From NCBI GenBank assembly GCA_041494705.1, contig JBGQBI010000006.1:1-32000 (forward strand): a stretch of 32,000 nucleotides of DNA, in the 5' to 3' direction. The DNA is from Candidatus Methanoperedens sp. (GTDB lineage: Archaea > Halobacteriota > Methanosarcinia > Methanosarcinales > Methanoperedenaceae). The position numbers and the translations under genes were made by a program. The notes below the pieces were generated by a model. It saw only the letters and a program-made list of their open reading frames with translations. It was not told the origin of the DNA and searched no databases. Below, piece after piece: positions 12,372 to 32,000 of the stretch; the stretch's first letter is position 1; the number at the start of each line of letters is the position of its first letter.

Positions 12372-12401
12372 TTTTTGCAGTATGATAGAGGTTACACAAC
12401 A

Positions 12402-12788: not shown

Positions 12789-12826
12789 AAAAGAAGTCCA
12801 GCCTGAAAGGCACAAAGAGGTTAAAA

Positions 12827-13288: not shown

Positions 13289-13298
13289 GAATAGATTT

Positions 13299-14000: not shown

Positions 14001-14023
14001 ATTTTCCGAAAAGTTTATATCAA

Positions 14024-14051
14024 ATCGTTATGTTTGAGCTAACATAACGAT
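14024..14051. promoter_or_regulatory. ModE-type molybdate-responsive operator (Mo-box) overlapping the modA promoter
   Basis: The perfect palindrome ATCGTTATGTT-TGAGCT-AACATAACGAT has the core CGTTATGT-N8-ACATAACG. This has the same spacing and near-identical half-sites as the E. coli modA operator as I recall it (CGTTATAT-N8-ACATAACG). A TATA-like TTTATAT lies at 14014-20 just upstream, and the modA ATG is at 14083. Confidence 0.6.
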
Positions 14052-14082
14052 GTTCACCTCAAGAGAATTAAGGAGTGAAAAC

Positions 14083-14835: not shown

Positions 14836-14839
14836 GTAA

Positions 14840-15493: not shown

Positions 15494-15495
15494 TT

Positions 15496-16581: not shown

Positions 16582-16709
16582 AAAATAGGAGTGTAATTCT
16601 GGGCAGCCGCAGGTTCGTAAATGCGACCCTCTACCGCCTGCTCGCAGTAGTCCTTGTTATCGCAGGCGCAAAGCTCATACTTGGGTGAACTGGAAGGTTA
16701 AAGATATAT

Positions 16710-16940
16710 TCATTCCGTAGCAGGTTCAATTTGGGGAATCTCTCCAAACTTCTCGATATTATTCAATCCGGGCTGGTTCTCTCTCGCTAATTCCTCCTCC
16801 AGCACCTGTATCGCCCCGCTGATGCGCAGCAGGGTATTTCTCAAATTCGCCTGTTTTATCTCCAGTTCTCCTAGCGTCCTCTGGCCTGAATCGAATTCGG
16901 CCCTGAGTTTTTTGAGGCGCTGCTCCAGTTGTTGTTTCAT
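16710..16940 (-). CDS. Small coiled-coil protein of unknown function, the last gene of the tail-like operon
   Basis: The 76-aa protein is heptad-rich (QQLEQRLKKLRAEFDSGQRTLGELEIKQANLRNTLLRISGAIQVLEEELAR). The SD AAGGAG lies 7 nt upstream, and the start is 63 nt downstream of the tail-collar gene. Confidence 0.5.
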   Translation of the reverse strand: MKQQLEQRLKKLRAEFDSGQRTLGELEIKQANLRNTLLRISGAIQVLEEELARENQPGLNNIEKFGEIPQIEPATE

Positions 16941-17003
16941 ATTAATTCTCCTTTTTTTTACTCTTCAATTTCCTTCAGGCATAATCATCTTTTTCTACCC
17001 GAT

Positions 17004-17837
17004 TTAAAGTTTCATTATATAAGCTAAAGCATAATAAGGCGGACGATTTTCATGAGCCTCGCCCCCGCCATTCAAAGCTGTCTTAAAGTGATGGGCATGC
17101 TGGCCTACAGAGTCTGACCACGCATGACCCCTCCACATCTCATTGTTCGGATCGCCACCGCATCCACCGCCGTACCCCATTTTTACTGTCGTATCACCGG
17201 GATAAGACCGTTTTCGCCATGCCAGACCATAGGCATCCTGACCTTCAGTCTGATGCGCGTGCTGGCCGTTTATCTGGGTATCACCTTCATGGTCATGCGC
17301 AGGGATTTGCTTTACATTTAGCGTTACAGTATCCATACCGCCGGTCTCGCCTGGTTTATATTTGTCTCCTGCCCCTGCAATAAACCGGTTCCTTAAATCA
17401 GGTGTGCCTTTATTGCCATCACAAAGCGCCCACCCATTAGGTATAGCGTTTATTGCTCCCGACCACATGACGATCATTCCTTTCAGGATAATGCCATCGC
17501 CCATAAACGATGTTGCTTTTACCGTACCCGAGACCTCCAGCTTCTCTGCCGGCTCTGGCGTCCCGATACCCACGTTGCCGTTCGTATGAATTCTCATACG
17601 TTCTTCAAGAGGACCGCCTTTAAGTCCGGTGGTGCTGATTGCCAGGACTCCCTGGAAATCACTTCCCGCCCCCATCATCATGATCCGGGCAAGAGGTTTT
17701 TCGGAATCTCTTCTTGTAACGCTCAATTCAGTTGTAGGACTTTTTTCGGTGTCCAAAAAAACATTCGCTGCGATTACATCCGATTCAACTGTTTCCGATA
17801 GATTTCTCTCTTTCTTCACTCTTTTCGTATCCGTCAT
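17004..17837 (-). CDS. Tail-fibre protein with a phage Tail Collar domain
   Basis: One fibre module, ERMRIHTNGNVGIGTPEPAEKLEVSGTVKATSFMGDG, is followed by MIVMWSGAINAIPNGWALCDGNKGTPDLRNRFIAGAG…TLNVKQIPAHDH…HENRPPYYALAYIMKL, the classic Tail Collar/MdpB pattern. Confidence 0.8.
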   Translation of the reverse strand: MTDTKRVKKERNLSETVESDVIAANVFLDTEKSPTTELSVTRRDSEKPLARIMMMGAGSDFQGVLAISTTGLKGGPLEERMRIHTNGNVGIGTPEPAEKLEVSGTVKATSFMGDGIILKGMIVMWSGAINAIPNGWALCDGNKGTPDLRNRFIAGAGDKYKPGETGGMDTVTLNVKQIPAHDHEGDTQINGQHAHQTEGQDAYGLAWRKRSYPGDTTVKMGYGGGCGGDPNNEMWRGHAWSDSVGQHAHHFKTALNGGGEAHENRPPYYALAYIMKL

Positions 17838-17851
17838 ATTTCTTTTCCTCT

Positions 17852-20818
17852 TTATTGAGCGGGTAACTTTTGCTCCTCCACATCCAGTATTCCAACATCA
17901 GCTCTCACTGCTTTGACTTCCCAATAGAATTTTTGAGACGGGTTCTTGCGGTCAATCATTTTCACATCGAATTTGCCGTCATCGACTTCCGAGGCTGCAA
18001 GCATAGAAACCTGGGAATTACCTTCAAATTTGGGTGTAATTAAGACAGTCCTATTTTCCTTCCTCGTCAATGCTTCAAAATAATCAGGGAGCTGGATAGT
18101 CGTCCTGCCCTCGGAAAGTTCCGCTTCCCCGCGATAGAAAACCGCGTTCTCAGGTCCTTCAAGCGTGGTATGGATAAGATATTTATTTTCCGGATCCAGC
18201 GGATGGTGTGTAATAAAGTTTTTTGTGCCGAACACTTTAAGGGTTTGTTCCACTGTAATATTGCCGGACACTTTAAGGTTTTGTCCCCCTTTATCCGGAC
18301 CAATTCTTACATCTCCGGAACTCGAGCCCAGCACCAGGTCATTCTTCACGCCTGTTGATGAAGGATCAGCATATAATCCCATAAATCCCCATGCAGTGCC
18401 AACCCTCATTCTTCCTCTACCCCCCTGGGCAAGGGTTTCATTGCCCTGGACATGCATGTTATTTTCTATCCAGGCATCTGTAGCATAGACATTTGCTCCA
18501 GGTCCGCCAATCGAAAGCCTTACTGAAGGACTTGCCGTCCCTATGCCGACATTGCCTCCATTAGGATTAATAGAAGTATTCGTACTACCAACACTGTTTA
18601 TTAAAAATGCCCCGCCTCTCTTCCACCACAGGTTCGCTTTCTGGGTGTTAGCCTCATAAAACTGGATTATCGCCCCTCCCGCTACCGGCGCTCCTCCGAT
18701 TGTCCCTATTGTACCTATGGAACCTATTGCTGATGCTGCCGCTGCTGAAATAGCCGGCTGCCCTGCTAATGTCGCAGCGGACATAACTGGCGTCGTTGTC
18801 CCTGCCGTACTCAGTGGTGTGACCCTTATCGGTGGTTGTATTGGTTGTATTATTGGTGGTTGTATTGGTTGAACTATTGGCGGTTGAACTACTGTTAAGA
18901 CTTCATTCGTAGCATTTATTTTAATGAAATCATCCGGTGCCAGATCGGATGCCCTGAAAATGCTCTCCCCGCTCTTGACTTCAAGATTCGCCCCGGGATT
19001 TTTAGTTCCTATGCCGACATAGCCTTTATCATAATAAATCCCTTTGGTATTGATAAACCACTGGCCAATCGGAAGATTGGTTATCAATGAGCCGTCGCCG
19101 ATAAACGCAGCAGCTTTGATTCTGCCGTTAACCTCCAGCTTCTCAGAAGGCGTCGCAGTCCCGATGCCTACGCCACTGGCTGCCAGTACGAGCGCATCCT
19201 GGAATGAATTGTTGTTTATAGTGAAAGGGGTGAAAGTAGCTCCCGTGATCTTAACGAATTTGAGAGAATTATCATCCCTGGAAGCAATTCTCCATTCCTG
19301 CTGCCCGTTATTCACGGCGACTGAAGGACCCCAACTTCCGGGTTTTCCGAGAATCTCAAGCCCCGCATTACCGGTTGGGCTTCCTGCATTTATTAATACA
19401 TCACCGTCGACCTGGAGCTTCCGCGCAGCAGCCGACGTTCCGATGCAGACCCGCCCTGAACCGTCTATCGTCATCCTGGCGACTGAAGCTGTCCCGAAAC
19501 TCAGCGGATGTGCGGTATTCGTTCCGATTATCATTCCTGCAGGCGCGCCCCACCAGCCGGAATCGTGCGCCAGAACCCGCGCATCTATGCCAGCCGTTCC
19601 GGCCGTTCTGACAGACAGTTTTACACTCTTCGGACCCAGAATATCAAGAACCTTGCCCCACGATTCGGCATTCTCGGCATCTGCCGCCCCTGTCCCGATA
19701 CCCACGTTGCCTGAGTTATCAACGTTCAGGGCAGGATCTACAACACCGTCGGCGCTTACAATTTTACTGTGCCTGTGGAGTGTATTGGCAACCGAGTTGT
19801 TGGTTAAAGCCGCCCAACTGTCACCATAAGCAACATCTGTTAAATTACCTTCAAGACCGATTTTCCATTTATCTGCGGTTTCATCCCAGATTATCTGGGC
19901 GTTTTTCGCAGTACCTCCGCGGAAAACCTCAAGACCCCCATTAATGACCTTCGGGGTAGGCTGTGACGGATATTTATTCACTATGACGACATTATCTTCA
20001 ACTTCCAGCGTTTTGGTCTCGATAGTTGTCGTATCACCTTTGACATCAAGATTCCCATAAATAGTACAGTTACCATCAACGACAAGGTTCTTATCTCCAG
20101 GGTCGGAAGTCCCGCCAATATGCAGACCTCCTGTAATGCCTTCCTTTATAGAGAGGGCTCCGCTAAACCTGGTTAATTGCGAAGTGACAAGAATTCCGTT
20201 TTTACCATCAATTTTCTTTCCTTCAATCAAAGGCTCGTAGGTTTCTTTTTCAATTGACAACGTCAATTTGCCGTAGGCTCCCGCATAGGTACGCAATGGC
20301 GTAGTGCCATCTTTATCAAAATAACTGACGTTGATGATGTCGCCGGTAATTTGAACCAGGGCGAGTATTATTTTCCCTTCGCTTTCTTTAATATTTAACC
20401 TGTTTGTATCCCTGTCGATTACGGCTTTCTCGACCCAGTGGATCTCATCAGTGCCGCCCCTGTCCTGTACTACATCTGCCGCTTCCTTTTTATGATAAAT
20501 ATAAATGTACACGCCTGCCTGCAATTCGGTAATGCTTAGAGGCACAGTAGCTGGGTCTGAAAGGACAATCTCCTGGCTTATGTCTTCATTCTCATTACCT
20601 TCATCCAGTAAGCCTCCAATTGTATTGATAGCCATTCCAGGCTCGATTACGACTTTACCGGATTCAACTTTAACATCCAGACCCCAAACAATCCCCTGTG
20701 TGTGGAGATGCCTGTTATGAAGGCGCCGCATTCGGATATGATAATTCTGTTCCAGGTTAAACTCTTCCTGCTTGAGGAAGAGACCATCAAAATACCGCAT
20801 TCTCTTAACTTCTACCAT
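17852..20818 (-). CDS. Large tail-fibre-like protein (988 aa)
   Basis: The N-terminal adaptor reads RYFDGLFLKQEEFNLEQNYHIRMRRLHNRHLHTQGIVWGL. Five copies of the G-N/V-VGIGT…(K)L(E/Q)V.G fibre motif follow, then a proline-rich tandem repeat and a C-terminal globular region (KNFITHHPLDPENKYLIHTTLEGPENAVFYRGEA…). The SD AAGGAGG is present. Confidence 0.7.
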   Translation of the reverse strand: MVEVKRMRYFDGLFLKQEEFNLEQNYHIRMRRLHNRHLHTQGIVWGLDVKVESGKVVIEPGMAINTIGGLLDEGNENEDISQEIVLSDPATVPLSITELQAGVYIYIYHKKEAADVVQDRGGTDEIHWVEKAVIDRDTNRLNIKESEGKIILALVQITGDIINVSYFDKDGTTPLRTYAGAYGKLTLSIEKETYEPLIEGKKIDGKNGILVTSQLTRFSGALSIKEGITGGLHIGGTSDPGDKNLVVDGNCTIYGNLDVKGDTTTIETKTLEVEDNVVIVNKYPSQPTPKVINGGLEVFRGGTAKNAQIIWDETADKWKIGLEGNLTDVAYGDSWAALTNNSVANTLHRHSKIVSADGVVDPALNVDNSGNVGIGTGAADAENAESWGKVLDILGPKSVKLSVRTAGTAGIDARVLAHDSGWWGAPAGMIIGTNTAHPLSFGTASVARMTIDGSGRVCIGTSAAARKLQVDGDVLINAGSPTGNAGLEILGKPGSWGPSVAVNNGQQEWRIASRDDNSLKFVKITGATFTPFTINNNSFQDALVLAASGVGIGTATPSEKLEVNGRIKAAAFIGDGSLITNLPIGQWFINTKGIYYDKGYVGIGTKNPGANLEVKSGESIFRASDLAPDDFIKINATNEVLTVVQPPIVQPIQPPIIQPIQPPIRVTPLSTAGTTTPVMSAATLAGQPAISAAAASAIGSIGTIGTIGGAPVAGGAIIQFYEANTQKANLWWKRGGAFLINSVGSTNTSINPNGGNVGIGTASPSVRLSIGGPGANVYATDAWIENNMHVQGNETLAQGGRGRMRVGTAWGFMGLYADPSSTGVKNDLVLGSSSGDVRIGPDKGGQNLKVSGNITVEQTLKVFGTKNFITHHPLDPENKYLIHTTLEGPENAVFYRGEAELSEGRTTIQLPDYFEALTRKENRTVLITPKFEGNSQVSMLAASEVDDGKFDVKMIDRKNPSQKFYWEVKAVRADVGILDVEEQKLPAQ
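18831..18894 (-). repeat. In-frame 12/24-bp tandem repeat encoding (Q-P-P/I-I)n
   Basis: On the plus strand, ggtggttgtattggttgtattatt and ggtggttgtattggttgaactatt are followed by ggcggttgaactactg. On the minus strand this translates to VVQPPIVQPIQPPIIQPIQPPI. Confidence 0.85.
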
Positions 20819-20874
20819 TTATTTTTTCCTCCTTGATTTTATCAACATAAGATACAATTTTTTTTAATCAACTC

Positions 20875-21894
20875 TCAGTCGTTATTTTTCCCCATGATCA
20901 GGCCGCCAAGCAGTGTATCCACTCCCACTGTGGAATGGTAGGATATCTGCATGGTCGGGGCCTGGATTATAAGCACGTAGTAAGTATGGGCAGGCTTTTC
21001 CTGGTCGATTAGATCTATGATAGCTTTCTTCTTTTTCTCAAGCATAACCCGGTCAAGCATGGGCAATTCCATGAAAACCTGGAAATAATAGGGGCGCCCT
21101 TCTCCCACCACCGTATTCATTCCAACGGTCGAAGTGACTCCCACCCTGAACGGATCTAAAAATTCAAATATGGATATTTTGACATCCTCGCCAACATATA
21201 TTTTAATATATTCTTTAAGCCCGTCCAGTGTTCCGCGTTTCTGGTACAATGGTATGATTTTAGCTATCAGGTCGCGTTTCTTTCTGGCGTTATCTGCGTT
21301 CCAGTCTTTCTCTTCCTTAAGGATTAATGCCATCCATCCTGCAAGCCATGACAGGAATTCCAGCGGGGTTTTATCAGGATCAAAGTAATCCTGGATACAA
21401 TCCAGTATTTCTTCTATACCTTTCTTTTTCCCGATATCGTCGGGAAACGCCTCTTCCAGGACACTCAAATTCAGAAGGACAAGGTCATTGCCTGCCGGAT
21501 TTTTTTTGATGAGTTCTTTTGTCGGACCGGTTAATATTACCTTCCTGAAACATTTTTCATCATATACCGGTTTGAGGAGCAGATTGTTAAATTCCACGGA
21601 CAAAGCATTTATGAGAGCTTCAGACGGAGGACTCAAACCGTCATACCCATCCAGCAGCGATACAGTTTCCTGTGAAAATAAATTTCTTAAGTACAGGGAT
21701 AGCGGATCATTAACATCCCGAAGCCTGGACGCCAGACTTGCAGGGTTCTTGATATCCACCTGCGGCAGCGAGTAGGCTGAAAGGATATTTTCGAACGCCT
21801 TCAGGAATCTTCCCAGGAAATCATCCTTTTCTTCAGGCTGGTAAATCCCTGGCAGGTACCGGAGATACTTACTTTGATTTTCTTTATTATTCAT
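20875..21894 (-). CDS. Phage tail protein, P2 gpI-like (TIGR02242-type, Afp12-like)
   Basis: The N-terminus YLRYLPGIYQ…DDFLGRFLKAFENIL and the central YFDPDKTPLEFLSWLAGWMALILKEEKDW…KRDLIAKIIPLYQKRGTLDGLKEYIKIYVG match the family pattern. A ~120-aa insertion lies between the two blocks. Confidence 0.72.
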   Translation of the reverse strand: MNNKENQSKYLRYLPGIYQPEEKDDFLGRFLKAFENILSAYSLPQVDIKNPASLASRLRDVNDPLSLYLRNLFSQETVSLLDGYDGLSPPSEALINALSVEFNNLLLKPVYDEKCFRKVILTGPTKELIKKNPAGNDLVLLNLSVLEEAFPDDIGKKKGIEEILDCIQDYFDPDKTPLEFLSWLAGWMALILKEEKDWNADNARKKRDLIAKIIPLYQKRGTLDGLKEYIKIYVGEDVKISIFEFLDPFRVGVTSTVGMNTVVGEGRPYYFQVFMELPMLDRVMLEKKKKAIIDLIDQEKPAHTYYVLIIQAPTMQISYHSTVGVDTLLGGLIMGKNND

Positions 21895-23425
21895 AAGGCG
21901 CCTTTTCCACTGTTAATTCGGGCAATGCGATTAATTGATGTTTTTCTATCTCCGCAGAGGCCGCCTCTGCATCACCGTTTATCCATATCTCTGCAATGTG
22001 GTCGATATCGGCTATCTCTTCCAGAATATGATAGAGTTCGGACCTGTAGACATTCCTTCCAAGCGGCCATCCCGTCCCATCAGGACCGCCGGTGACGGGG
22101 TGAAAGTACTCATTTATCCTGTTTGCAGCCTCTTGTATGGCCTGCGCTTCGTTTTTATTTTTCTTAAGAGCTATCCATACTTTGAGGAATATATTCTTGT
22201 AAAAAGGGGAAACCGCATGCACTCTCGTTGTGATCAATTTTTTTGCTTCCAGATACCCCCTTACCTCTTCTTTTAACAAACGCGACGGCTTCGGTTTGTC
22301 TTTTGAACCTGAATATATATTCGGTTTATTGCTCTCCATTTTGACATTGAATTTATCGGCCATGACATCATCAATTGTCAAAACAGCTCTTGTTTTTTCT
22401 TTGTTCAGCCTGAGCCAGAGGGAATGATTTTCAATGGATAGATTTATGTTATTTTCATCGGTTTTTTTAATTTGTGCATCTTTCACCCAGTTTGCATCAT
22501 AATTCTTTCTTATGTAACTTTTAAATATGTCGCTGCCGGTTGTCGGGATTTCATCAAAGCAAAACAGATACTCTTCACAGTAGCTGGAATTTTCTATCCA
22601 GGCGGGGATTGTAATTACAGATACATGGCCTGGCTTATTTATGTCAACAGTACTGTATTCCAGATCCCTGTTATTCATGCAAACAGCTCTTCCTTCCAGA
22701 CCACTTTGTAATTTCTTCATACAGTCAAGAGCTTTACTTTCAAAATCCATGGATGTAACAGCCCTGTACCCCGACTCCATATAACCCACAGAGGCTTCCT
22801 TGATTTCGATTACACTTTTCTTTTTTCCATCCTCAATATCCCGAAGCAAATCCAGGAGTTTCCTGTATTCAATATCCAGGTCCGGAACATTGTAGATGTT
22901 CAGGTCGCTATTCTTCTTTTCAACATGCAGGTAGCGGGTCTGGCATCCATTTATCTTTAGATTTGCTTTATCATCTTTCTCGCCAAGGATTAACTCCACC
23001 CGGTTTTTACCTTTTTCCTCGACCGCGATGAGGGTTTTATCGTCAATTTTTTCGATAATTTTTGTTTTGGTTGCCCAATCCATATCAAAATCGCTCTTGA
23101 GAAAGGCCCGGAATGTTGCGAAATCATTATCTTCAATCGTATTCCATGTAAATAAGAACGGGCCGCTCAGCAATCTCTCAAGTTCATCTCTTTGCGGGAC
23201 ACCTGCTATCAGCTTTAAAAAGTTAATATAGGATGCATCGGGAACCTGATTTGTCCTGTAAATCACCATTTCGCCAAGCCATGAGAAGAGTTCAAGGAGT
23301 GTTATTCCTGGATCAGAAGGGTTGTAGTTTGTCCAATCCTTGTTGTAGCGTGGAATAAGAGCCCTGGCCTCTTTCATCAGGTCTTCAAAGCTTCTGTCAT
23401 CCAGATTGGGTATGGGTATGGACAT
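21887..23425 (-). CDS. Baseplate J-like assembly protein (second paralogue, 512 aa)
   Basis: The N-terminus reads LDDRSFEDLMKEARALIPRYNKDWTNYNPSDPGITLLELFSWLGEMVIYRTNQVPD, the centre GYRAVTSMDFESKAL…PGHVSVITIP and the C-terminus YFHPVTGGPDGTGWPLGRNVYRSELYHILEEI. These are baseplate J/gp6-like hallmarks. The gene overlaps the next one by 8 nt. Confidence 0.72.
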   Translation of the reverse strand: MSIPIPNLDDRSFEDLMKEARALIPRYNKDWTNYNPSDPGITLLELFSWLGEMVIYRTNQVPDASYINFLKLIAGVPQRDELERLLSGPFLFTWNTIEDNDFATFRAFLKSDFDMDWATKTKIIEKIDDKTLIAVEEKGKNRVELILGEKDDKANLKINGCQTRYLHVEKKNSDLNIYNVPDLDIEYRKLLDLLRDIEDGKKKSVIEIKEASVGYMESGYRAVTSMDFESKALDCMKKLQSGLEGRAVCMNNRDLEYSTVDINKPGHVSVITIPAWIENSSYCEEYLFCFDEIPTTGSDIFKSYIRKNYDANWVKDAQIKKTDENNINLSIENHSLWLRLNKEKTRAVLTIDDVMADKFNVKMESNKPNIYSGSKDKPKPSRLLKEEVRGYLEAKKLITTRVHAVSPFYKNIFLKVWIALKKNKNEAQAIQEAANRINEYFHPVTGGPDGTGWPLGRNVYRSELYHILEEIADIDHIAEIWINGDAEAASAEIEKHQLIALPELTVEKAPYE

Positions 23426-23436
23426 TTTTCACTCCT

Positions 23437-26400
23437 TTAGCGTGTTGACATTTCGGGCCCGAAACACCATCCGCAATAATCGTATCCATCGATCTTATCG
23501 AGGGTTCTGGTAAATATCATATGGTCTTTCTGTATCTGGTCCAGGTTGCAATTCGGTTGAACTCTATTCAGGTCATGGATTTCTTTTGTATTGGTATTCA
23601 TGAGATACCGGTATGCCAGTTCTTCTTTTGGTTTTGTGTTTATTGCATGCTCACCTGAATAAACAAGGTAGTTCTTCTCAATGAATATTTTTTCAGAATT
23701 ACTCACTTTTTTTATCACTCTGGTCACTCGTTTTGAAGGGTCATCTCTAAGGCTAAGGACAAAACTATCGCCGGCATTAAGGATTGATATCTTGAGAGGA
23801 TTAAGACTTATATCGCCTTCCGGAACCTCATTGAGAGTGAAAGATTTAATCCGTTCATCGGAGGTCTTAACTATGCTGCCCGCAGGATATACAGTATCAA
23901 TCTGTGACTGCTCGCATTCAAGGATATCACCCAACATCCCATGGGACACCGACCTTATTACGAGGCTTGCACTCTTATCCTGATGGCTCAGGATGATACT
24001 GTCCCCTTCCTTAAAACCCACAACAGTGAGCGTATCTATCTCTTCTTCCGGAAGCTTTTCAGCCAGGGAAAATGAGAGTTTTCCATCACTTCTTTCTATC
24101 CTGCTGTTCTCAGGGTAAGAATCGGAGAGAATTAAACTCTCCGTTAAAGTCAATTTATAGACCTGGACTGAAGCATTAAGGGTCAGCCCATCAACATAGT
24201 CAACGCCGTCTGTACTTTCGATGACATCATAAACCTGTGATATGTATACATTTCTGCCAAAGTCCCATCCCTCTTTTTCAGGGCCTCCAGTAAGCGGGTG
24301 AAAAAACCGCTTAAGATTTTCGATGATTCTTCCCTCGATGATTTTTGCATCGGCGACCGATGTGAAATGTACCTTCGCCTCAACACCCACCTTAATATAG
24401 CCCGGCCCGATAAGGGTAATCTGGGAAGGGTAGGTTGTGAGGTATGTTGAGGTTCTATTGAAAATATAGTCCTGGATTTCATTAATCAATCCCTGGCTCG
24501 GGACAGGTTTGGGATTCTCGCGTTCATCCGGGACAATGATCAAAGTAATCCAGCCCGGTCTGAAATTCCTGCCCGGGTCGGTAGTTGGCAGACATTTAAC
24601 CTTGGCGGCTTTTGGGGAAGCCTCCCTTACCAGCCATTCAAAGTCCTCATAGGTGACAGCCCTGTCACGATGCTTGATAGTTTGCGGTCCCCGTTCCCTG
24701 AGCCAGTCAAGATTCTTCTGGTCTCCGCCGCCGTCAGAATCCTCATGATTGGTTACTGATTCAACATAAGGAAAAGCCGTCCTGAGCTTTGTTATGGATT
24801 GGACGCCCACATTATTCCCATTCACTCCCCCGCCGTACTGGTAACTGCACCGGATATTTTCCTTTTCTGCAGGAGGAATCATACCCATTTCGCCGTCCCC
24901 AAAAGTTATCGTCCCTTTATTGCGGTCAATAATATAGTGCCGGCTCTGGGGACCGGAAGAGTAAAGATAGTTCCTTTCATGCCACCGCACCCAGTACCCG
25001 ATAACGTTGCCATCATCATCCTCTATCTCTTCTATCGCATCCTTTCCTTCCTCAAAGCGGATAGTCGATTTCATCTCATCGGTAAGTGAGATCTCCAGCA
25101 CCATGACTTTTTGTCCCGGCAAAACAGGGAAATGGGAAAAATTGAAAACCTGACCGGTTTTCCCATTGCTTGAACCCAGAACCTCGCTGTCAACTGTAAT
25201 GCGATTATATGCCCAGACTGTGTTCGTGTAGATGCCTTTCAATCGGGGCAGGTTATCATACTTGCCTTTATCCAGCCTCGCCCGTATCCAGTAATATTCT
25301 GTTTCGAACCCAAAGCAGTACCTCTTTTCCATGTCATCCGGCGCAAGGAATTGTATCATCTCCATTTTGGTCAGGTTCCTTGTTCCGTCTTCAACGCTCA
25401 GAAGGGACCAGGTCTTACCTGTCCAGTACTCCCACGCCACTACCGGAGCCGGAGGGTTGTCAGATGCGATGACAACAGTAAACATATTTTCAAGAAGCGG
25501 GAAGAATATGGTCACCGGAAGCGTGGAAATATCCTGGTCAAATGCCAGGTAAACTGCCTGCTGGGTATCGGCTACAGGCTGGAAGGGGGTGATGTTTTTA
25601 TTGCCACCTTTGGACGCTTCGGTTTCATCGCGATAAATGAAATCGTTATATGTAAGAATGGTCTCCAAATCCTTTTTGGATAGATTAAATGAATATTCAA
25701 GCGCCAGGTTGCTTACGGACGGCGGTTTATAAGTAAGCTGCCTGTACAGCCATCCGGTCTTTTTGATAGTAAAATCCGTTGCTGAACCCAGGTCGGGGTC
25801 AAAGGCAGAATCAATGGTGAGTGAGGTATCGATGGAAATGCCGGTGACGATTCTGGTCTGGTTTGCGGCTATGATTGAATCGCCTATACCGAGCTCGGTT
25901 TTGAACTTCGTCTCCGTCCCTATAACAATATTATCCCTGCTCTTGATTTTCCCCGTACCTTTGCCTGCATCTATTGATATCTTGTCATAACTTGCATCCT
26001 TGCCGTAATTCCCGTCAATGATGCGCACGCGAACCCAGTTATTCTTTTCACCATTGATTTCTTTCTCTTCTATTTTAGGGCATGTGAATTTAACAGTCGC
26101 TTCTTTATCTTTAAATGTAAAGGCATTGGTGGTATCGGTGAACTTATAATCACCTTTTTCTGCCGGAACACCCTTTTGGGTTGTTTCGTATATAGTCTTC
26201 CAGTTCTTTCCATCCCAGAATTCCCAGACGAGGGTTATAGCTTCCGTATTTGGTGATTCCACACCCTTCGAAAAGTTGAATTTTAATGTTAAGATTGCGT
26301 CCTTCTTGGAAAAGACCTCCTTTGAGCCTATATAAAAAGTATCATTGAATTTTGGTCTTTCTCCGAAAGGATAGAAATCCTTTGTCAAATCTATCTGGAA

Positions 26401-27333
26401 ATTATTGAAAAATGCTAAATCCGGAGGGACAGTGGAGCCGGGAATCGAGACACTTGCTTTAATGGTATTGATCAATGGCAGTTTCTCTTTTGGAATCGGG
26501 GTATTCAGTTCGGCGTAAATCCAGTGATTTGTCCAGCTCTTTTCCTCATCCTTTTCTGTCAGGGTCTTTTCCGAGATTCCCCCCACGGGTTCAAAAATAA
26601 TACTCCCACTCTTCAAAAGGCTGGCAACATCCTTGTCAGTACCGGCTGCAACATCCAGGGATTTTGGCGCTAAATTTTCATCAAAATAGTACCATTTCAC
26701 TTCCCAGGGAACAGCCTGTGCTATATCGGCGGCTTTGAGAGTTATATCAAGTGTAATGACAGCCTTTTCCTTGAAGCTGAAAAGTTCACTGTTGCCGAGG
26801 TAAAGGCGGTGAGGAACAAGCTCCTTCCCTTTGAAAAGGACAACATCCTCCGTTGTATTGCCGGATAGAACAGCGGTTTGATCAGCCCATTTATCCTCAT
26901 CCGGTGAAAGACTTACCGCCCCAACCAGTTTTTGCGGGATAATTGTGATGTCTTCCGTGGTTTCAAAAACGATGGCTTCTTTTTCTTTTGTCTGGGCAGT
27001 GGCTGCCTGAGTCCCGCAGGGTATTTTCCTGTATTTAGTTTCCCCTTTTGCCATGGTAAAGGTCAGGGGCGCCGTAGCCACCCTTGGAGGAAATAAACTT
27101 GTACCTACCATATCCAGAAAAGTCAGGAAATTCTTGTCAGGGACTTTGTTCAACCGCTGGATTATTATCTCCATCATCCTGGAAAAGATGTGCATGAGGG
27201 CATCGGCATATTGGTCAGACTCGATTGCAGCCGCATCTTTCCATTCAGGGCAATAGTAAAGAGCCAGGTCCCTTACCTGTTCAAATAACATCTGCTGGTC
27301 TCTTGAGTCGATTTTAGGCGGGTCTATGGTCAT
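23437..27333 (-). CDS. Giant baseplate J-like protein (Afp11/gp6-like, 1298 aa) with a C-terminal extension
   Basis: The N-terminus (…VRDLALYYCPEW…IFSRMMEIIIQRLNKVPDKNFLTFLDMVG) parallels the 512-aa paralogue. …RAVTYEDFEWLVREASP…KVKCLP… and FFHPLTGGPEKEGWDFGRNVYISQVYDVIEST are present. The start overlaps the gp25 stop (ATGA at 27330-27333). Confidence 0.75.
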   Translation of the reverse strand: MTIDPPKIDSRDQQMLFEQVRDLALYYCPEWKDAAAIESDQYADALMHIFSRMMEIIIQRLNKVPDKNFLTFLDMVGTSLFPPRVATAPLTFTMAKGETKYRKIPCGTQAATAQTKEKEAIVFETTEDITIIPQKLVGAVSLSPDEDKWADQTAVLSGNTTEDVVLFKGKELVPHRLYLGNSELFSFKEKAVITLDITLKAADIAQAVPWEVKWYYFDENLAPKSLDVAAGTDKDVASLLKSGSIIFEPVGGISEKTLTEKDEEKSWTNHWIYAELNTPIPKEKLPLINTIKASVSIPGSTVPPDLAFFNNFQIDLTKDFYPFGERPKFNDTFYIGSKEVFSKKDAILTLKFNFSKGVESPNTEAITLVWEFWDGKNWKTIYETTQKGVPAEKGDYKFTDTTNAFTFKDKEATVKFTCPKIEEKEINGEKNNWVRVRIIDGNYGKDASYDKISIDAGKGTGKIKSRDNIVIGTETKFKTELGIGDSIIAANQTRIVTGISIDTSLTIDSAFDPDLGSATDFTIKKTGWLYRQLTYKPPSVSNLALEYSFNLSKKDLETILTYNDFIYRDETEASKGGNKNITPFQPVADTQQAVYLAFDQDISTLPVTIFFPLLENMFTVVIASDNPPAPVVAWEYWTGKTWSLLSVEDGTRNLTKMEMIQFLAPDDMEKRYCFGFETEYYWIRARLDKGKYDNLPRLKGIYTNTVWAYNRITVDSEVLGSSNGKTGQVFNFSHFPVLPGQKVMVLEISLTDEMKSTIRFEEGKDAIEEIEDDDGNVIGYWVRWHERNYLYSSGPQSRHYIIDRNKGTITFGDGEMGMIPPAEKENIRCSYQYGGGVNGNNVGVQSITKLRTAFPYVESVTNHEDSDGGGDQKNLDWLRERGPQTIKHRDRAVTYEDFEWLVREASPKAAKVKCLPTTDPGRNFRPGWITLIIVPDERENPKPVPSQGLINEIQDYIFNRTSTYLTTYPSQITLIGPGYIKVGVEAKVHFTSVADAKIIEGRIIENLKRFFHPLTGGPEKEGWDFGRNVYISQVYDVIESTDGVDYVDGLTLNASVQVYKLTLTESLILSDSYPENSRIERSDGKLSFSLAEKLPEEEIDTLTVVGFKEGDSIILSHQDKSASLVIRSVSHGMLGDILECEQSQIDTVYPAGSIVKTSDERIKSFTLNEVPEGDISLNPLKISILNAGDSFVLSLRDDPSKRVTRVIKKVSNSEKIFIEKNYLVYSGEHAINTKPKEELAYRYLMNTNTKEIHDLNRVQPNCNLDQIQKDHMIFTRTLDKIDGYDYCGWCFGPEMSTR

Positions 27334-27731
27334 GAAACCTTTCCCCTCTCAAGGTAAAATGGATATACCAGGTTATCCCTTGTGTTAGTCGTCTTTACCA
27401 TGTAATCTATAGTTATGATAAGTTTGTTCTGTTCTGTTTCGTCAGGCTCCGCGTTCACGTTCAGTAATTCAATCCTCGGTTCCCATTTCAGCAATGCCTC
27501 TTTTATGTAAAATGTTATGAGCGTGGCAGTTGAGGTATTGTTCGGTGCAAAAACAAGCTCATTGATTCCGCATCCGAAATCAGGTCTCATGACCCGCTCT
27601 CCCTTCGCAGTGCCAAGTATTATCATTATAGATTCCCGGATGGAATCGTAACCCTCTGAAGAAACTATCTTTCCATCTTTAATAGACACCGGGAACTTCC
27701 AGCCGCTGCCTAAGAAATCTGCATCGGTCAT
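27330..27731 (-). CDS. Baseplate wedge protein, GPW/gp25 family
   Basis: FLGSGWKFPV…YDSIRESIMIILGTAKGERVMRPDFGCGINELVFAPNN…LLKWEPRIEL is the canonical gp25 lysozyme-like fold pattern. Confidence 0.87.
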   Translation of the reverse strand: MTDADFLGSGWKFPVSIKDGKIVSSEGYDSIRESIMIILGTAKGERVMRPDFGCGINELVFAPNNTSTATLITFYIKEALLKWEPRIELLNVNAEPDETEQNKLIITIDYMVKTTNTRDNLVYPFYLERGKVS

Positions 27732-28130
27732 TTATCCTCCAATCAGAACAGTACCAACCGCCATGACAGTGCCAACGGGAAGGTCGGAGGGGTCATTGCA
27801 GGTCATGGCAGTATCGCCGCTCCTTGCCGCCATTTTCCCGTTTATTTTTACAGTAGTACTTCCCATTTTTATAGTCGCCTTGTTTGAGGGTGGATTCTGG
27901 AACGGTCCGCCCTGCGGAATATGCGGCGGCGTGTTTGAAGCCGTTGAATCAACAGTAGCTGCCGGCATTCCCATTATTTTTACGTCCGAGCTGAGACTTC
28001 CGTCTATAATACCGACAAAAGGATGCGGTAAGGGCGTAGGCACAGGCGGTCCCGGAGGTGCGGGTATCATTATAATATGCGTATCTGTTGCCATTACCTG
28101 GTCTCCCTGTTTAGCTGCCGGCTGTCCCAT
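27732..28130 (-). CDS. PAAR-domain spike-tip protein
   Basis: AKQGDQV…THI…, …IMGMPAATVDS… and …INGKMAARSGD..MTCND… are three PAAR-like repeats. The gene lies between the spike and gp25 genes, as in Afp10/T6SS-like systems. Confidence 0.8.
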   Translation of the reverse strand: MGQPAAKQGDQVMATDTHIIMIPAPPGPPVPTPLPHPFVGIIDGSLSSDVKIMGMPAATVDSTASNTPPHIPQGGPFQNPPSNKATIKMGSTTVKINGKMAARSGDTAMTCNDPSDLPVGTVMAVGTVLIGG

Positions 28131-28131
28131 A

Positions 28132-28770
28132 TTAATTAATGTTCACCGTTGCCCCTTTTAGATTCGCAGTTGCGGATGCTTTGAGATCCATAGTTGATGA
28201 TGCCTCAATCTTTGTAGAAGCGGATGATTTGACTTCGATATCCATTGCCTCGATTTTCACTTTCCCGTTTGGCGCGGATATTTCGATGTCCTTGTCTGAT
28301 ATTATGGAGATTTTCTTTTCTTTGGTGTCGATGATTATCTTGTTATTTTTCGATTTATCCACTATCTCTATCTTTTCCTGCCCATCGGTATCATCAAGCC
28401 TTATCACATGGCCGCTTCGTGATTTTATGATCCTGAAATTGTTCTTCCCGTCATCATTTGTTAGCGGCGGGCTATCCTTGCCATTCCATAACGAGCCGAT
28501 TACGTAGGGGATGTTTATGTCGCCATACTCAAAAGCCACGAGCACTTCATCATTCACCTCAGGCAAAAAAAATCCGCCCATTTCTTTCCCTGCCATAAAG
28601 GAAATAACTCTTGCCCAGTTCGATTCATCCTCCGAGCTCAAACGGGGTATTTTTACTTTCACACGTCCAAGTTTATCCGGATCTTTATTATCAGTCACAA
28701 TCCCGACAACGACTCCGTTTATCCTCGAATCGGGTCTCCTGCTTTGCTCAAGAATTGCGGTAATGCTCAT
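28132..28770 (-). CDS. Central spike protein, gpV/gp5 OB-fold plus C-terminal beta-helix
   Basis: INGVVVGIVTDNKDPDKLGRVKVKIPRLSSEDESNWARV…GGFFLPEVNDEVLVAFEYGDINIPYVIGSLWNG is followed by 8-residue-periodic beta-helix repeats (KISIISDKDIEISAPNGKVKIEAMDIEVKSSAST…). Confidence 0.87.
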   Translation of the reverse strand: MSITAILEQSRRPDSRINGVVVGIVTDNKDPDKLGRVKVKIPRLSSEDESNWARVISFMAGKEMGGFFLPEVNDEVLVAFEYGDINIPYVIGSLWNGKDSPPLTNDDGKNNFRIIKSRSGHVIRLDDTDGQEKIEIVDKSKNNKIIIDTKEKKISIISDKDIEISAPNGKVKIEAMDIEVKSSASTKIEASSTMDLKASATANLKGATVNIN

Positions 28771-29816
28771 ACCCCGGTCCTCCTCACCCTGAATGTCGTT
28801 GAATATGCTCCCTCGTTGATGGAATGAATACTGGATGCAATATAATATGCGCCGCTGAGCCTGTCTCCCAAACCTTTGATTTCTATGGTTTTCCCTGCCC
28901 GTATTTTCGGATTCCCGCCGCAGACTCCCTCGCCTGTTAAAAATTCTTTAAGAAATAAATTATACTTCGCCTTTGCAATATTTTCAGCGTCTTTTGAATC
29001 TATGATTAAATCGTCCACTACCGAGACCGCCGAAGCGGTAAACGCTTTTTCAGATATTTCAAATCCCGATTCTTTACCTTTCATCTTTGATTTCTCACTG
29101 CCTTTTGAAGCTGTGGAGGTTATTTCCTCCTTGTCTTTAACATTCCAGCCCCTGACCTCTATCTTGCTTCCTTCGGTCAGTGTTTTTATCCGGGCTGAAA
29201 AATTCAGCAAATCTATCCCGTACTGGAGTGTTACCTCCGGGGTTTTATCTTCCTGCGATTTCCGGAAAATAAAGGTCTTATCATCAACAAGCATTTCATA
29301 ACCAATCCGGTTTGTGCGTTCGAGGAGGAATTCATAGTTGGTCTGGTTATTCTGGAATATGTACGGCTGGATGGTTCCCGTATCGTCGACATCGGGTGAA
29401 AGACTGACCTCGGAAGCAACCTTTGATGCGATATCGCTGTCCTTCATATCCTTGAACGAGCGCCTCATTGTTCCAAACCTGAGCCTGTGAAGCCTGTCAT
29501 AACCTCTTATCTCGACATAGGAAGAATCCCCGAAGGTATAATCAAGGGCGGTTATTTCGCCTGTCATCATTTCTACCGTGCTGTCGTTGCCCATGAAGAC
29601 TTTTACAATGTCCCCGACCTTGAAGGTCTTAAGATCAACGCCTCTCCATGCGCCTTTAAAAAAATCAACCGTATTGAATTTGATAGTGAACATCGCCGGA
29701 AGATTAATCTCATCTTCAAGGGTCACTCCCTCCACTGCGGATAATAACTCTCCTGAAAGCTCAGTTCCATTCAGGAACAGCTTGAAATTGGCGACATTTA
29801 TTACATCGGAAACCAT
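28767..29816 (-). CDS. Baseplate hub protein, phage late control gene D / gp27-like (VgrG N-terminal equivalent)
   Basis: FKLFLNGTEL…EGVTLEDEINLPAMFTIKF…FKVGDIVKVFMG…MTGEITALDYTF…VEIRGYDRLHRL…SFKDMKDSDIASKVA…IFQNNQTNYEFLLERTNRIGYE matches the gpD pattern. The stop overlaps the spike gene start by 4 nt. Confidence 0.8.
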   Translation of the reverse strand: MVSDVINVANFKLFLNGTELSGELLSAVEGVTLEDEINLPAMFTIKFNTVDFFKGAWRGVDLKTFKVGDIVKVFMGNDSTVEMMTGEITALDYTFGDSSYVEIRGYDRLHRLRFGTMRRSFKDMKDSDIASKVASEVSLSPDVDDTGTIQPYIFQNNQTNYEFLLERTNRIGYEMLVDDKTFIFRKSQEDKTPEVTLQYGIDLLNFSARIKTLTEGSKIEVRGWNVKDKEEITSTASKGSEKSKMKGKESGFEISEKAFTASAVSVVDDLIIDSKDAENIAKAKYNLFLKEFLTGEGVCGGNPKIRAGKTIEIKGLGDRLSGAYYIASSIHSINEGAYSTTFRVRRTGV

Positions 29817-29829
29817 AAGGCAAGACTCC

Positions 29830-30438
29830 CTAATCCGGAATTATTAAAGTCCTTCCGATGTCGTCGTCTTTTGGAAACTCAAGCGGGTTAAGAATATTGT
29901 TCTCGTCAGCGATTTTCCTCCATAAAGATACATCCTTGAGCGCCTTATCGGCGATAAGGTCAAGCCTGTCCCCGCTTTTTACAGTCCACAATTTCCTGCA
30001 GGCTTCCGCTCCTTTTAACTTCGCGTCTTCTTCGGTTGTTACAACAGACTTGAAGGTGACTGACAGTTCCGCTCTTACAGGTATCCCGCTCGGGAGAAAC
30101 AGTGTGAACTTCTGGTCATGTTTATATATGATTCCCTTGTAAGTGAATTTTCCCCAGCTAAACAGGCATATGTGGGGTTTTTTTGTTTGTTTTCCCTCAA
30201 CAGTAGGCATAACGAGTGAGGTTATCTTTTCGATTTTCTCCCTGACATCAGTTTGCTTTTCGTAAGTATCGAAGAGCAGCGTAACAGTGAAATCCGATAG
30301 ATTTACCTTATTGAAACTCAGCGATGACCCTTCACCGGTTGTCTGTGCAAGTGTCGAGACGGTATATTCCTTCGGATTAAACATCACTTCAATAGTTTCA
30401 TTCGTATCGAGTACGGTTATTTGCGCCTTTGAAACCAT
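29830..30438 (-). CDS. Tube-initiator-like protein with a C-terminal LysM domain (Afp7-like)
   Basis: The N-terminal tube-like fold reads ITVLDTNETIEVMFNPKEYTVS…FTVTLLFDTY. The C-terminal LysM reads WTVKSGDRLDLIADKAL.D.SLWRKIADENNILNP…IGRTLIIP. The start overlaps the upstream stop (TGATG). Confidence 0.8.
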   Translation of the reverse strand: MVSKAQITVLDTNETIEVMFNPKEYTVSTLAQTTGEGSSLSFNKVNLSDFTVTLLFDTYEKQTDVREKIEKITSLVMPTVEGKQTKKPHICLFSWGKFTYKGIIYKHDQKFTLFLPSGIPVRAELSVTFKSVVTTEEDAKLKGAEACRKLWTVKSGDRLDLIADKALKDVSLWRKIADENNILNPLEFPKDDDIGRTLIIPD

Positions 30439-32000
30439 CAGGATAACCCCCTTCTGTCTTTTTCTATCGAGATTCTTTTCTCAATCATCTTGTAAACGGT
30501 ATCGGCAATCCTGTTGATCTCATGGAACGGTTTTTCTCTGAAGGATTCCCTGATAAAAGTATCGTTTATATTCGGGGGAGCTGTTTTTCCTGCCTGTTCC
30601 TTGTTTTCCGGAATAATTTCTGTTTTTTGCACCACCGGTTTTTTAAGAATCAGTTCCAGAGAGGAGTTATAGGCAAGCTCGCCGGTTGAAACCTCCATTG
30701 GTGTTTTCATGTCATTGGGAATACCGTATTTCAAATCGATACCATTCCGGGGAAAAACCAGGTCAGAAAATTGGTCTTCAGCCGGTTTCAATATTATCCC
30801 TCCACGATGTGCGCGGATTGTATTTTTTCTTCCTGTCTTTTCATATTCCCTGATAATATTTTCATAGCGTGTATTCACGATAGTTCTGTTTTGCAAGACT
30901 GATTCTGTGCCTTTTTCCGTCATGTCCCGAATACCTGCCGGAGTCCCATCCGCTTTTATGTGCGATGGCTCCCCGGATTGGTTTTCATTATTTGAAGGCT
31001 GTGCTGCAGGGACAAAATGATGAATGCCCCGGTTACTTTTTGAGAGTATGTTCCCGATATTGGGCGTTCTTTTTAAATTGCTAAAATTTACAGTATTTGA
31101 AGGATTCAAGACCATTTTTAAAGGCCGACTTATCAGATGCGAACCGGGGAGGTTTTTGTAGCTTGTTTCAGTTTCAGTCATGCTCCGGTATAAGGCATTT
31201 TTGGCCTCTGGATGACCGCTCGTTCTTGAAAGCGCCGGTTCTAAAAATCCCCCTTCTTTAATAAAATTCCTTAATCCCGATACAGGAGCCTGGATAATCC
31301 TGTGTTGTGAACCCGTCTCGATATCGGGAGGTCTTTTTAAATAACCCCTCATCCCGGCGTTTGAATATATGTTTGAGTATATCAAAGTCATATTCGCGGG
31401 CCGGGTTATTAAATGCGAGCCGGTGAATAAAAGGTTCCCTCCAGTCCCGCTTTCCTGAGGATTATTTTCATAGCTTATGTCCGCTGCCGCCCCGTTTTGC
31501 GAATATAATGGCTTTGCTGATACCGCATCTTTCCCGGCCGAATGGGAGTTCATTATTTTTGCGGGAAAAGAATGCCTTTCTTCGGGCTGCTTGCCAGATG
31601 CAAAAGGATAACCGGTTTGATAGCGCCGTGAACCGAAAATCCAGGCGTTCTGCAATCTTTGCAAATGGCTTATAGTCACATTCGCAGAATACGTGACCAT
31701 TCTAATTGGCCGGATAATCGAATATGAACGGGTGAGTAAAAAATTCTTTCCTGCATTGCCGGACTCCCCTGTATTATATTCATAATCTATATTCGATACT
31801 GTGATTTCCTTCTGGAAAGCATTTGTGCCTTCCGATGGTTTCACATTCATTATTGCGCGTGGCGATGCCGAAGAAACTTCTTCATGAGAAGCCTTTATTC
31901 CGGATGGTATAGGTTCGATTATTTTTTTATCGTCCTGAGCAGGGTAGGAAGAAGAAAGCTGCTTATGTGTGAATATCCGGTCACTCTGATTCGTTGCGGA
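30438..32000 (-). CDS. Repeat-containing protein, putative tape-measure/length-determining protein; 5' end outside the window
   Basis: The reading frame stays open from 31850 up to base 32000, with no stop and no SD before the Met at 31850. The track ORF (470 aa) is therefore probably N-terminally incomplete. Its position immediately upstream of the LysM and gpD genes matches P2 gpT. The functional call rests on synteny plus three internal repeats only. Confidence 0.4.
   Translation of the reverse strand, partial: SATNQSDRIFTHKQLSSSYPAQDDKKIIEPIPSGIKASHEEVSSASPRAIMNVKPSEGTNAFQKEITVSNIDYEYNTGESGNAGKNFLLTRSYSIIRPIRMVTYSANVTISHLQRLQNAWIFGSRRYQTGYPFASGKQPEERHSFPAKIMNSHSAGKDAVSAKPLYSQNGAAADISYENNPQESGTGGNLLFTGSHLITRPANMTLIYSNIYSNAGMRGYLKRPPDIETGSQHRIIQAPVSGLRNFIKEGGFLEPALSRTSGHPEAKNALYRSMTETETSYKNLPGSHLISRPLKMVLNPSNTVNFSNLKRTPNIGNILSKSNRGIHHFVPAAQPSNNENQSGEPSHIKADGTPAGIRDMTEKGTESVLQNRTIVNTRYENIIREYEKTGRKNTIRAHRGGIILKPAEDQFSDLVFPRNGIDLKYGIPNDMKTPMEVSTGELAYNSSLELILKKPVVQKTEIIPENKEQAGKTAPPNINDTFIRESFREKPFHEINRIADTVYKMIEKRISIEKDRRGLS

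Follow-up and report, generated by a model that had tools for sequence, protein, structure and literature searches.

A Probable Complete Chromosomal Contractile Injection System With Modular Fibres in Candidatus Methanoperedens

Introduction

In the classification of extracellular contractile injection systems (eCIS) by Chen et al. (2019), subtypes IIa and IIc, which include archaea, have an afp8 gene split into gp27 and gp5 open reading frames (ORFs) and two afp11 genes (PMC6899500). An archaeal system of this kind was characterised in 2024, when the contractile injection system (CIS) on plasmid pHBOR03 of Halogeometricum borinquense was reported as a membrane-bound, contact-dependent antagonism weapon resembling a type VI secretion system (T6SS), and its DUF4157 proteins as toxins whose secretion depends on the CIS and whose immunity partners are encoded downstream (Zachs et al., 2024; PMC11566945). 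The clusters of methanogens and of anaerobic methanotrophic archaea (ANME) were left unexplored in that work. Here we analysed such a locus in Candidatus Methanoperedens, located at 16710-32000 of a 32,000-nt stretch of DNA (hereafter the window) that corresponds to bases 1-32000 of NCBI contig JBGPBB010000005.1 (GCA_041480985.1, 201,534 bp). The initial annotation of the window held that no archaeal eCIS-like locus had a known function, a view that the haloarchaeal study has made outdated.

Clusters of this type have already been listed for ANME. They have been reported in all ANME groups including ANME-2d, with related ANME-2c clusters described as well transcribed (Chadwick et al., 2022; PMC9012536), and also in ANME-3, in all Methanoperedens metagenome-assembled genomes (MAGs) from Lake Cadagno and on a Methanoperedens extrachromosomal element (PMC12180501; PMC12246660; PMC13444090). 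The clusters of ANME and Methanoperedens, also termed phage-like protein translocation structures (PLTS), were likewise treated by Sarris et al. (2014). These clusters have the same synteny as the present locus and do not differ from it in kind, and the proteins of the locus were 76-98 % identical to those of other Methanoperedens loci. The reports are inventories and phylogenies, and in the passages searched we found no subunit mapping, fibre modularity, absence of an anchor or 76-aa gene of the kind described below. The present locus is thus correctly identified as a kind already catalogued in Methanoperedens.

Our results indicate that the region 16710-32000 is very probably the distal half of a complete chromosomal CIS that works by the general mechanism of this class. 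Judged from its gene sequences, the locus is assigned to lineage II of the eCIS/PLTS superfamily, with the layout of subtypes IIa and IIc. What it adds to the catalogue are its long modular fibres, the lack of a homologue of the haloarchaeal membrane anchor and the lack of any transmembrane protein among its products. In ANME genomes, CIS clusters are among the few candidate cell-cell devices by which these archaea may recognise, retain or combat their neighbours in methane-oxidising consortia. The locus provides a complete mapped example, with two exchangeable-tip fibres that could serve as binding probes, a candidate eCIS_core cargo next to a putative immunity gene, and no homologue of the anchor that marks the T6SS mode in haloarchaea.

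Organization and Completeness of the Cluster

The ORF listing confirmed a run of eleven co-directional genes on the minus strand, followed by a 76-aa gene that extends the run to 16710, as the initial annotation had stated. The junctions were as tight as claimed. Overlaps of 1 nt (TGATG at 30438), 4 nt (28767-28770 and 27330-27333) and 8 nt (21887-21894) were found, and the remaining gaps measured 0, 1, 11, 13, 14, 56 and 63 nt, the two widest lying ahead of the long fibre gene (56 nt) and the 76-aa gene (63 nt). All twelve ORFs were intact, with coupled junctions. Nine of the eleven genes either reached the curated cut-off of a profile or matched PDB sequences strongly, and the order of all twelve was kept in other Methanoperedens contigs at 56-98 % identity, which argues that these are real genes and not chance frames. 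The GC content of the block (0.41-0.51) was the same as that of the remainder of the window. A scan for bacterial-type promoters and terminators at the operon end returned nothing beyond shuffled expectation.

The parent contig was read from the window edge to record base 40438 (8.4 kb, part of stretch L001). The sheath, tube, AAA+ ATPase and cap, which had been predicted to lie beyond 32000, were all present within these 8.4 kb. On the same minus strand, the remainder of a 711-aa gene was followed by a gp19-type tube gene, a 122-aa tail assembly chaperone gene (L001 6862-7230; PHROG 1e-7, no Pfam match) and a second gp19-type tube gene, both tube genes matching PF06841. Then came a 500-aa sheath (Phage_sheath_1/1C), ORFs of 75 and 188 aa, a Pvc16/Afp16-type (DUF4255) cap (Pvc16_N, 7e-35), an Afp15-type ATPase (WHD PF22977, 1e-55; AAA, 6e-37), a 145-aa ORF and a 552-aa eCIS_core (DUF4157) protein.

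The eight eCIS core components of Chen et al. (2019) were present, namely the sheath, the gp19-type tube, Afp7, Afp8, Afp9, Afp11, the Afp15-type AAA+ ATPase and the Afp16/Pvc16 cap, with the LysM domain itself below Pfam detection. The IIa/IIc signature was found in the form of VgrG_rel on two adjacent genes, two TIGR02243 proteins and a PAAR protein, compared with a fused VgrG and a single Cis11 in the bacterial IId relatives. The split VgrG and the duplicated baseplate-J gene are not atypical but the defining layout of these subtypes (PMC6899500). We favour IIa over IIc, as suggested by the Cis12 and Cis13 homologues and the one-to-one homology with the clade-IIa cluster of H. borinquense. 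The gene order mirrors the P2 order T-(X/U)-D...V-W-J-I-H and the part list Afp7-Afp13 is shared, in agreement with the earlier comparison. The earlier description as "eCIS/tailocin-type" implies a released particle, a mode that cannot be established from sequence alone.

To the sheath, 565 relatives were found. In the one-genome-per-species GTDB set, the five nearest sheaths came from MAGs of the Ca. Methanoperedens lineage (88, 79, 78, 77 and 76 % identity), three of them labelled Ca. Methanoperedens and two "uncultured archaeon", and the sheath of M. nitroreducens was 68 % identical. The whole cluster was collinear in the Methanoperedens-lineage relatives. The left half of the window carries an archaeal nitrogen regulon (NrpR, GlnA, Amt, nifH-nifI1-nifI2-nifD-nifK, ferredoxin and modABC). 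Because the nearest sheath relatives are Ca. Methanoperedens MAGs, the cluster is collinear in them and the regulon is archaeal, the host was identified as an ANME-2d archaeon. This confirms the methanogen/ANME-type diazotroph that had been proposed from NrpR and the nifH-nifI1-nifI2 layout.

Spike, Wedge, and Tape-Measure-Position Genes

The hub, spike, PAAR and gp25 genes named in the initial annotation were recovered by profile and PDB searches. The 349-aa product of the gene at 28767..29816 (Cis8a) is the N-terminal half of a VgrG divided between two genes, the half that resembles gp27/gpD. It matched positions 8-348 of 547 in NF033848 VgrG_rel (1e-43) and, over residues 11-346, All3320 of tCIS in the PDB (2e-21), and it aligned with the N-terminal ~345 residues of fused Cis8/VgrG chains; its Phage_GPD/YQBQ matches were weak and below cut-off. 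The C-terminal half (Cis8b, 212 aa; 28132..28770) is a gp5/gpV-like spike with an OB-fold and a beta-helix, matching PF04717 Phage_base_V (8e-28) and positions 369-541 of 547 in VgrG_rel (6e-43). The PAAR spike tip (Cis10, 132 aa; 27732..28130; PF05488, 5e-12) was kept at 80-98 % identity in the relatives, and the next gene encodes the gp25/TssE-type sheath initiator (Cis9, 133 aa; 27330..27731; PF04965, 6e-30; TIGR03357, 2e-8).

The two baseplate-J paralogues and the gpI-like protein were likewise borne out by TIGR02243, TIGR02242 and chains of the Streptomyces coelicolor system CIS-Sc. Cis11a (1298 aa; 23437..27333) is a large baseplate-J/gp6-like wedge protein, which matched Baseplate_J, TIGR02243 above the cut-off (4e-71) and the CIS-Sc Cis11 chain 9gtp_1K (2e-58). 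Cis11b (512 aa; 21887..23425) is the shorter paralogue, with matches to Baseplate_J, to TIGR02243 below the cut-off (2e-37) and to 9gtp_1K (1e-26), and its N-terminal 74 aa were 45-53 % identical to bacterial and haloarchaeal Cis11. Cis12 (339 aa; 20875..21894) is a gp7/P2 gpI-like wedge protein, matching TIGR02242 above the cut-off (1.5e-24), CIS12_fam, PF09684 Tail_P2_I (5e-12) and CIS-Sc Cis12 9gtp_E (7e-8). The wedge of CIS-Sc consists of two Cis11 and one Cis12 (PDB 9GTP/9GTR; PMC12237407). Since both paralogues match the CIS-Sc Cis11 chain, which occupies two wedge positions, a Cis11a-Cis11b-Cis12 wedge is the simplest reading.

Cis11a contains an internal insertion of ~400 aa and a C-terminal extension of ~240 aa, the latter consisting of repeat modules that were found conserved in close relatives only. 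It was homologous over most of its length to the 1064-aa Cis11a of H. borinquense. A novel insertion was considered as the explanation of its size and rejected, because the haloarchaeal protein aligns over most of the region and the Cis11 proteins of AlgoCIS and tCIS are equally large.

The 202-aa gene at 29830..30438 encodes a tube initiator of the Cis7/Afp7 type (PF19266 CIS_tube, 5e-25), with PDB matches of 2e-8 to 1e-6 to CIS-Sc 9gtp_P, AlgoCIS 7aeb_M and tCIS 7b5h_AK. The protein consists of a tube-fold domain and a diverged LysM-like C-terminus, of which residues 132-189 weakly match the LysM protein Kbp, and along its entire length it shared 35 % identity with the Cis7 of H. borinquense that is annotated as "LysM". 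No Pfam LysM domain was detected in it at E <= 1. The proposed LysM tube initiator was therefore upheld in its Cis7 identity but not by a Pfam LysM match, and the LysM label derives from the full-length homology to Cis7 proteins so annotated and the weak Kbp match.

Ahead of Cis7 lies the tape-measure-position gene (Cis14-like; 30438..32000), of which the window holds the C-terminal 520 codons in a frame open to the window edge. The complete gene (L001 7866-10001) encodes a low-complexity, repeat-containing protein of 711 aa that ends in a conserved helix motif (...INRIADTVYKMIEKRISIEKDRRGLS; ...ADTVYKMIEKRISIEKDRRGL), and searches against Pfam, NCBIfam, PHROG and the PDB gave no match. The gene that precedes Cis7 ends in this motif as well in a further Methanoperedens contig (L011), in an Anaerolineaceae MAG (L017), in Streptomyces (L024) and in H. 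borinquense, and the relatives of the protein vary from 441 to 730 aa. The tape-measure label given earlier derives from the gene position and the C-terminal motif.

A related observation was made in H. borinquense. Just upstream of Cis7 on pHBOR03 (NC_014736.1 ~65671-72282; L086 5672-12283), a Ser/Thr-rich and apparently disordered open frame of 2203 aa runs into HBOR_RS17605, annotated as a 182-aa hypothetical protein, and shares its C-terminal motif with the 711-aa protein. The annotation of HBOR_RS17605 may have cut short a giant protein in the tape-measure position.

Fibre Genes and Candidate Cargo

The fibre genes are placed after the baseplate genes, where eCIS encode their fibres, and the two fibres assigned earlier were supported by the matches to CIS13_fam, phrog_1800 and 9qgo_A given here. 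The long fibre (988 aa; 17852..20818) matched CIS13_fam at residues 4-115 and PHROG tail-fibre families. Its N-terminal ~180 aa form a Cis13-type adaptor to the baseplate; four G-x-V-G-I-G-T fibre repeats lie at residues 370, 455, 599 and 755, and the C-terminus is a tip domain. The ~90 database homologues had the Cis13 adaptor N-terminus in common and unrelated C-terminal domains; in the Methanoperedens homologues, the first ~640 residues were conserved and the C-termini were swapped. The short fibre (277 aa; 17004..17837) carries a tail-collar (MdpB-like) tip, with matches to the tail collar fibre family phrog_1800 (2e-30) and to residues 258-434 of the Photorhabdus virulence cassette (PVC) fibre Pvc13 (9qgo_A, 1e-10), and a weak match to PF07484. 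A second species (contig L091) contains an extra short-fibre paralogue with the N-terminal 100 aa in common and a different tip. A search for diversity-generating retroelements or template repeats serving the fibres found none, only short in-frame motif repeats within the fibres.

The cluster is closed by the gene for a helical 76-aa protein (16710..16940), which had no match in the Pfam and PHROG searches. It was 69-93 % identical in its relatives and always stood directly after the fibre gene or genes (L087, L091 and M. nitroreducens L089); a role as a fibre-assembly factor would be a guess. The sizes of the fibre module were ~1000 + 277 + 76 aa in two other species and 851 + 77 aa in M. nitroreducens.

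The candidate cargo is the 552-aa eCIS_core protein, whose gene lies with the following 145-aa ORF upstream of the ATPase gene. Its C-terminal 167 aa (L001 3-506) form a Cys-rich domain, which AlphaFold predicted as a confident beta-sandwich (pLDDT 91) and for which a fold comparison with the PDB gave nothing meaningful (best TM-score 0.36). Invariant H, E, D and R residues in this domain hint at an enzyme. At least 93 stand-alone proteins of ~260 aa contain this domain too, and some of those inspected begin with what we take to be a DUF4157-type leader. DUF4157 proteins act as effectors in Streptomyces. In the Methanoperedens relatives, the cluster flanks carry arrays of eCIS_core genes with differing C-termini, followed by small ORFs.

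The position of the cargo region was found to move between species. M. nitroreducens (L089 9909-16556) has four eCIS_core genes after the fibre and 77-aa genes; in the present species and its close relatives, the eCIS_core genes lie upstream of the ATPase instead (L001 1-960). The C-terminal domains of these proteins also differ: among them were a transglutaminase-like (TGL) domain, a candidate OmpA-like domain matched weakly and below threshold, and the beta-sandwich.

Comparison With Characterised Systems

The locus was homologous gene for gene to the clade-IIa cluster on pHBOR03 of H. borinquense. The two have in common the order Cis7, split VgrG, PAAR, gp25, Cis11a, Cis11b and Cis12, as well as the Cis13 N-terminal domain, two tube genes, the chaperone-like protein, the Pvc16 cap, the WHD+AAA ATPase and DUF4157 cargo genes. 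Both also encode, upstream of Cis7, a long disordered protein that ends in the same motif. Identities were low (30-53 %), with 42 % for the gp5 part, 53 % for gp25, 31 % for Cis11a, 42 % for the sheath and 34 % for the ATPase. The Methanoperedens cluster forms one collinear, co-directional block on the chromosome, whereas that of H. borinquense is divided into two subclusters on a plasmid. Cis13 is a 988-aa repeat fibre followed by the collar-tip fibre and the 76-aa gene in Methanoperedens, but an adaptor without fibre repeats in haloarchaea, and the Methanoperedens sheath lacks ~100 residues of the haloarchaeal domain-3 region.

The membrane components also differed. The multi-transmembrane proteins RS17580 and RS17575 of H. 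borinquense were searched by tblastn against the window, L001 and ten Methanoperedens-lineage loci, covering ~10 kb on each side, and nothing below E = 0.07 was found; RS17580 is taken to be Hbor_38620, the putative anchor with six transmembrane segments. No transmembrane segment was predicted in any protein of the cluster.

Among solved structures, CIS-Sc (subtype IId) provided the best matches for Cis11, Cis12 and Cis7, and its ATPase, cap and sheath were 35-45 % identical. CIS-Sc differs in its fused VgrG, single Cis11 gene and absence of fibres, carries the membrane protein CisA in the fibre slot, and fires inside its producer. The Photorhabdus PVC and Serratia Afp share the Afp7-Afp13 parts, the Afp15 ATPase and the Afp16 cap, and the tip of the short fibre is homologous to that of Pvc13. 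These systems belong to lineage I, however, with a fused VgrG, a single Afp11, another gene order, eukaryote-targeting toxins and cargo loading by a signal peptide. Phage P2 and the R-type pyocins resemble the locus in having the chaperone between the tube and the tape-measure position and a wedge of two gp6-like and one gp7-like proteins, but they are without the AAA+ ATPase, Pvc16-type cap and DUF4157 cargo; P2 has head genes and the pyocins have a lysis cassette.

Conservation across domains was highest in the 122-aa chaperone-like protein, above that of the sheath; it shared 52-69 % identity with the bacterial proteins that were compared and 58 % with its haloarchaeal counterpart. A 27-kb contig from a MAG labelled Fibrobacter sp. 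(JAAYPC010000349.1; L013) showed the archaeal layout with a split VgrG, and its proteins were 42-80 % identical to those of Methanoperedens (PAAR 80 %, chaperone-like protein 69 %). This cluster reflects either an inter-domain transfer or a binning error.

Proposed Mechanism and Mode of Action

The workings proposed here are drawn by homology to solved CIS structures, and from these we infer the wedge stoichiometry, the cargo identity and the firing mode. The split VgrG (349-aa gp27-like and 212-aa gp5-like parts), capped by PAAR, would form the spike, which Cis7 would adapt to the six-fold tube, and gp25 would start the sheath. Around it would stand six wedges, each of Cis11a, Cis11b and Cis12, with the paralogues taking the two Cis11 positions that a homodimer holds in the Streptomyces system. 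From the wedges would hang both fibres, the Cis13-anchored one of 988 aa and the collar-tipped one of 277 aa, and the genes past 32000 would provide the tube, chaperone, sheath, cap and AAA+ ATPase. Contraction of the sheath would then drive the spike, the tube and the eCIS_core/DUF4157-tagged cargo into another cell.

As to the side from which the system acts, we lean, at about even chances, to an eCIS-like, fibre-guided particle that would reach its target from outside. The lean is due to the modular fibres with swapped tips, the haloarchaeal Cis13 without a fibre, the lack of an anchor homologue and the lack of transmembrane segments. The fuller proposal of a true extracellular particle, in which strain-specific tips would choose the target and a DUF4157-tagged payload would be delivered, is more tentative and falls somewhat short of even. 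If true, this mode would be new for Archaea, a counterpart of tailocins and PVCs that is distinct in mode from the haloarchaeal T6SS, and its targets would be partner or competitor bacteria, or rival archaea, in the methane-oxidising aggregates. Particles that were both released and fibre-guided would represent a second mode of action for archaeal CIS.

The locus could instead encode an archaeal T6SS as in Halogeometricum, with its baseplate on the membrane of the producer, contact-dependent firing and the fibres serving as feet or envelope contacts. The gene-for-gene homologous cluster of H. borinquense was shown to be membrane-bound and contact-dependent, and Methanoperedens grows in dense aggregates, which suit contact-dependent delivery. 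On the other hand, neither the window nor L001 nor the ten loci contained a homologue of the putative six-transmembrane anchor, whose presence correlates with the T6SS mode in haloarchaea, and no cluster protein has a predicted transmembrane segment. The present Cis13 is longer than the haloarchaeal one by a swappable tip and fibre repeats, together ~800 aa, and the second fibre has a Pvc13-like receptor-binding tip. Moreover, a different mode was proposed by Zachs et al. where the anchor is lacking (PMC11566945). The membrane-bound mode is accordingly judged unlikely, yet it keeps a sizeable minority share because the closest relative to have been characterised is a T6SS and the cluster shows no lysis genes.

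Several further points weigh against the fibre-guided particle and the assignments behind it. None of the cluster genes could be recognised as holin- or lysin-like, and a released particle would need a lysis cassette. The sole characterised archaeal homologue is a membrane-bound T6SS (PMC11566945). The locus is known from its genes, and beyond base 40438 the exclusion of anchor, lysis or head genes applies to the relatives only. Position and one motif suggest the tape-measure role of the 711-aa protein, and the CisA paper found no recognisable tape-measure gene in the related Streptomyces cluster. The Cis11a/Cis11b heteromer in the wedge is likewise a putative one.

Firing of a cytoplasmic CIS inside the producer, as in S. 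coelicolor, would bring about regulated cell death or a developmental change in the aggregate. The non-archaeal sheath relatives among the best-scoring genome and plasmid matches were mostly IId systems of Streptomyces, Kribbella and Chloroflexi (41-45 %), and the closest solved structures of Cis11, Cis12 and Cis7 are those of CIS-Sc. Nevertheless, the locus differs from CIS-Sc on four counts (VgrG fusion, Cis11 number, fibres and CisA), and swappable fibre tips are ill-suited to an intracellular target, making this mode improbable. Still less probable is a conserved but non-functional relic. Knowledge of this genome from its sequence leaves room for such a relic, but the twelve intact ORFs with coupled junctions are kept across species at 69-98 % identity, including the 76-aa gene, and the related ANME-2c clusters were reported as well transcribed (PMC9012536).

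Weakest among the alternatives was a myovirus origin, in which the locus would be the tail module of an integrated or defective phage. Every part is homologous to phage tails, and the fibres match PHROG tail-fibre families; however, the cap, the WHD+AAA ATPase and the eCIS_core gene occupy the usual neck and head gene position upstream of the sheath. No terminase, portal or capsid gene was found in the 8.4 kb to base 40438, or in 3-6 kb further in five relatives. In these relatives, the 3-6 kb upstream of the ATPase contained eCIS_core genes with small ORFs, or housekeeping genes (ThiN, M4 peptidase, DUF92 and prenyl transferases), the latter being the case in M. nitroreducens. A scan of the window found neither tRNAs nor integration signals, no integrase was present among the profiled window ORFs, no compositional break was seen, and the cluster adjoins the nif operon in two species. 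The IMG/VR scan gave five distant matches only, none above 52 % sheath identity. With cap, ATPase and cargo replacing the head genes, housekeeping or cargo genes in the flanks and no IMG/VR relative, the prophage reading is close to refuted.

Genomic Neighbourhood

Beyond the nitrogen regulon, the neighbour described earlier as a COG1361-like surface protein was not recovered: the 150-aa ORF at 265-717 had no Pfam match, and 714-1970 encodes a MacB/FtsX-type ABC permease. In the window (9291-16940), the modABC and PNPOx genes separate the CIS cluster from the nifDK-ferredoxin region. In the second species (L091 12473-16851), the end of the CIS cluster adjoins the nifDK-ferredoxin-GATase region without the intervening modABC and PNPOx. 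As the CIS cluster adjoins nif in this second species too, the CIS-nif neighbourhood predates the split of these Methanoperedens species.

An inverted repeat of 37 nt was also found in the window. Its arms, at 9231-9267 and 12301-12337, were 89 % complementary (CTCTGTGAACTCTGTGTCCTCAGTGGTTGATTTTATT) and bracket nifD-nifK and a 91-aa ferredoxin gene. One arm closely precedes the nifD start, and the second closely follows the ferredoxin ORF. The repeat could be a regulatory element or the remnant of a mobile element.

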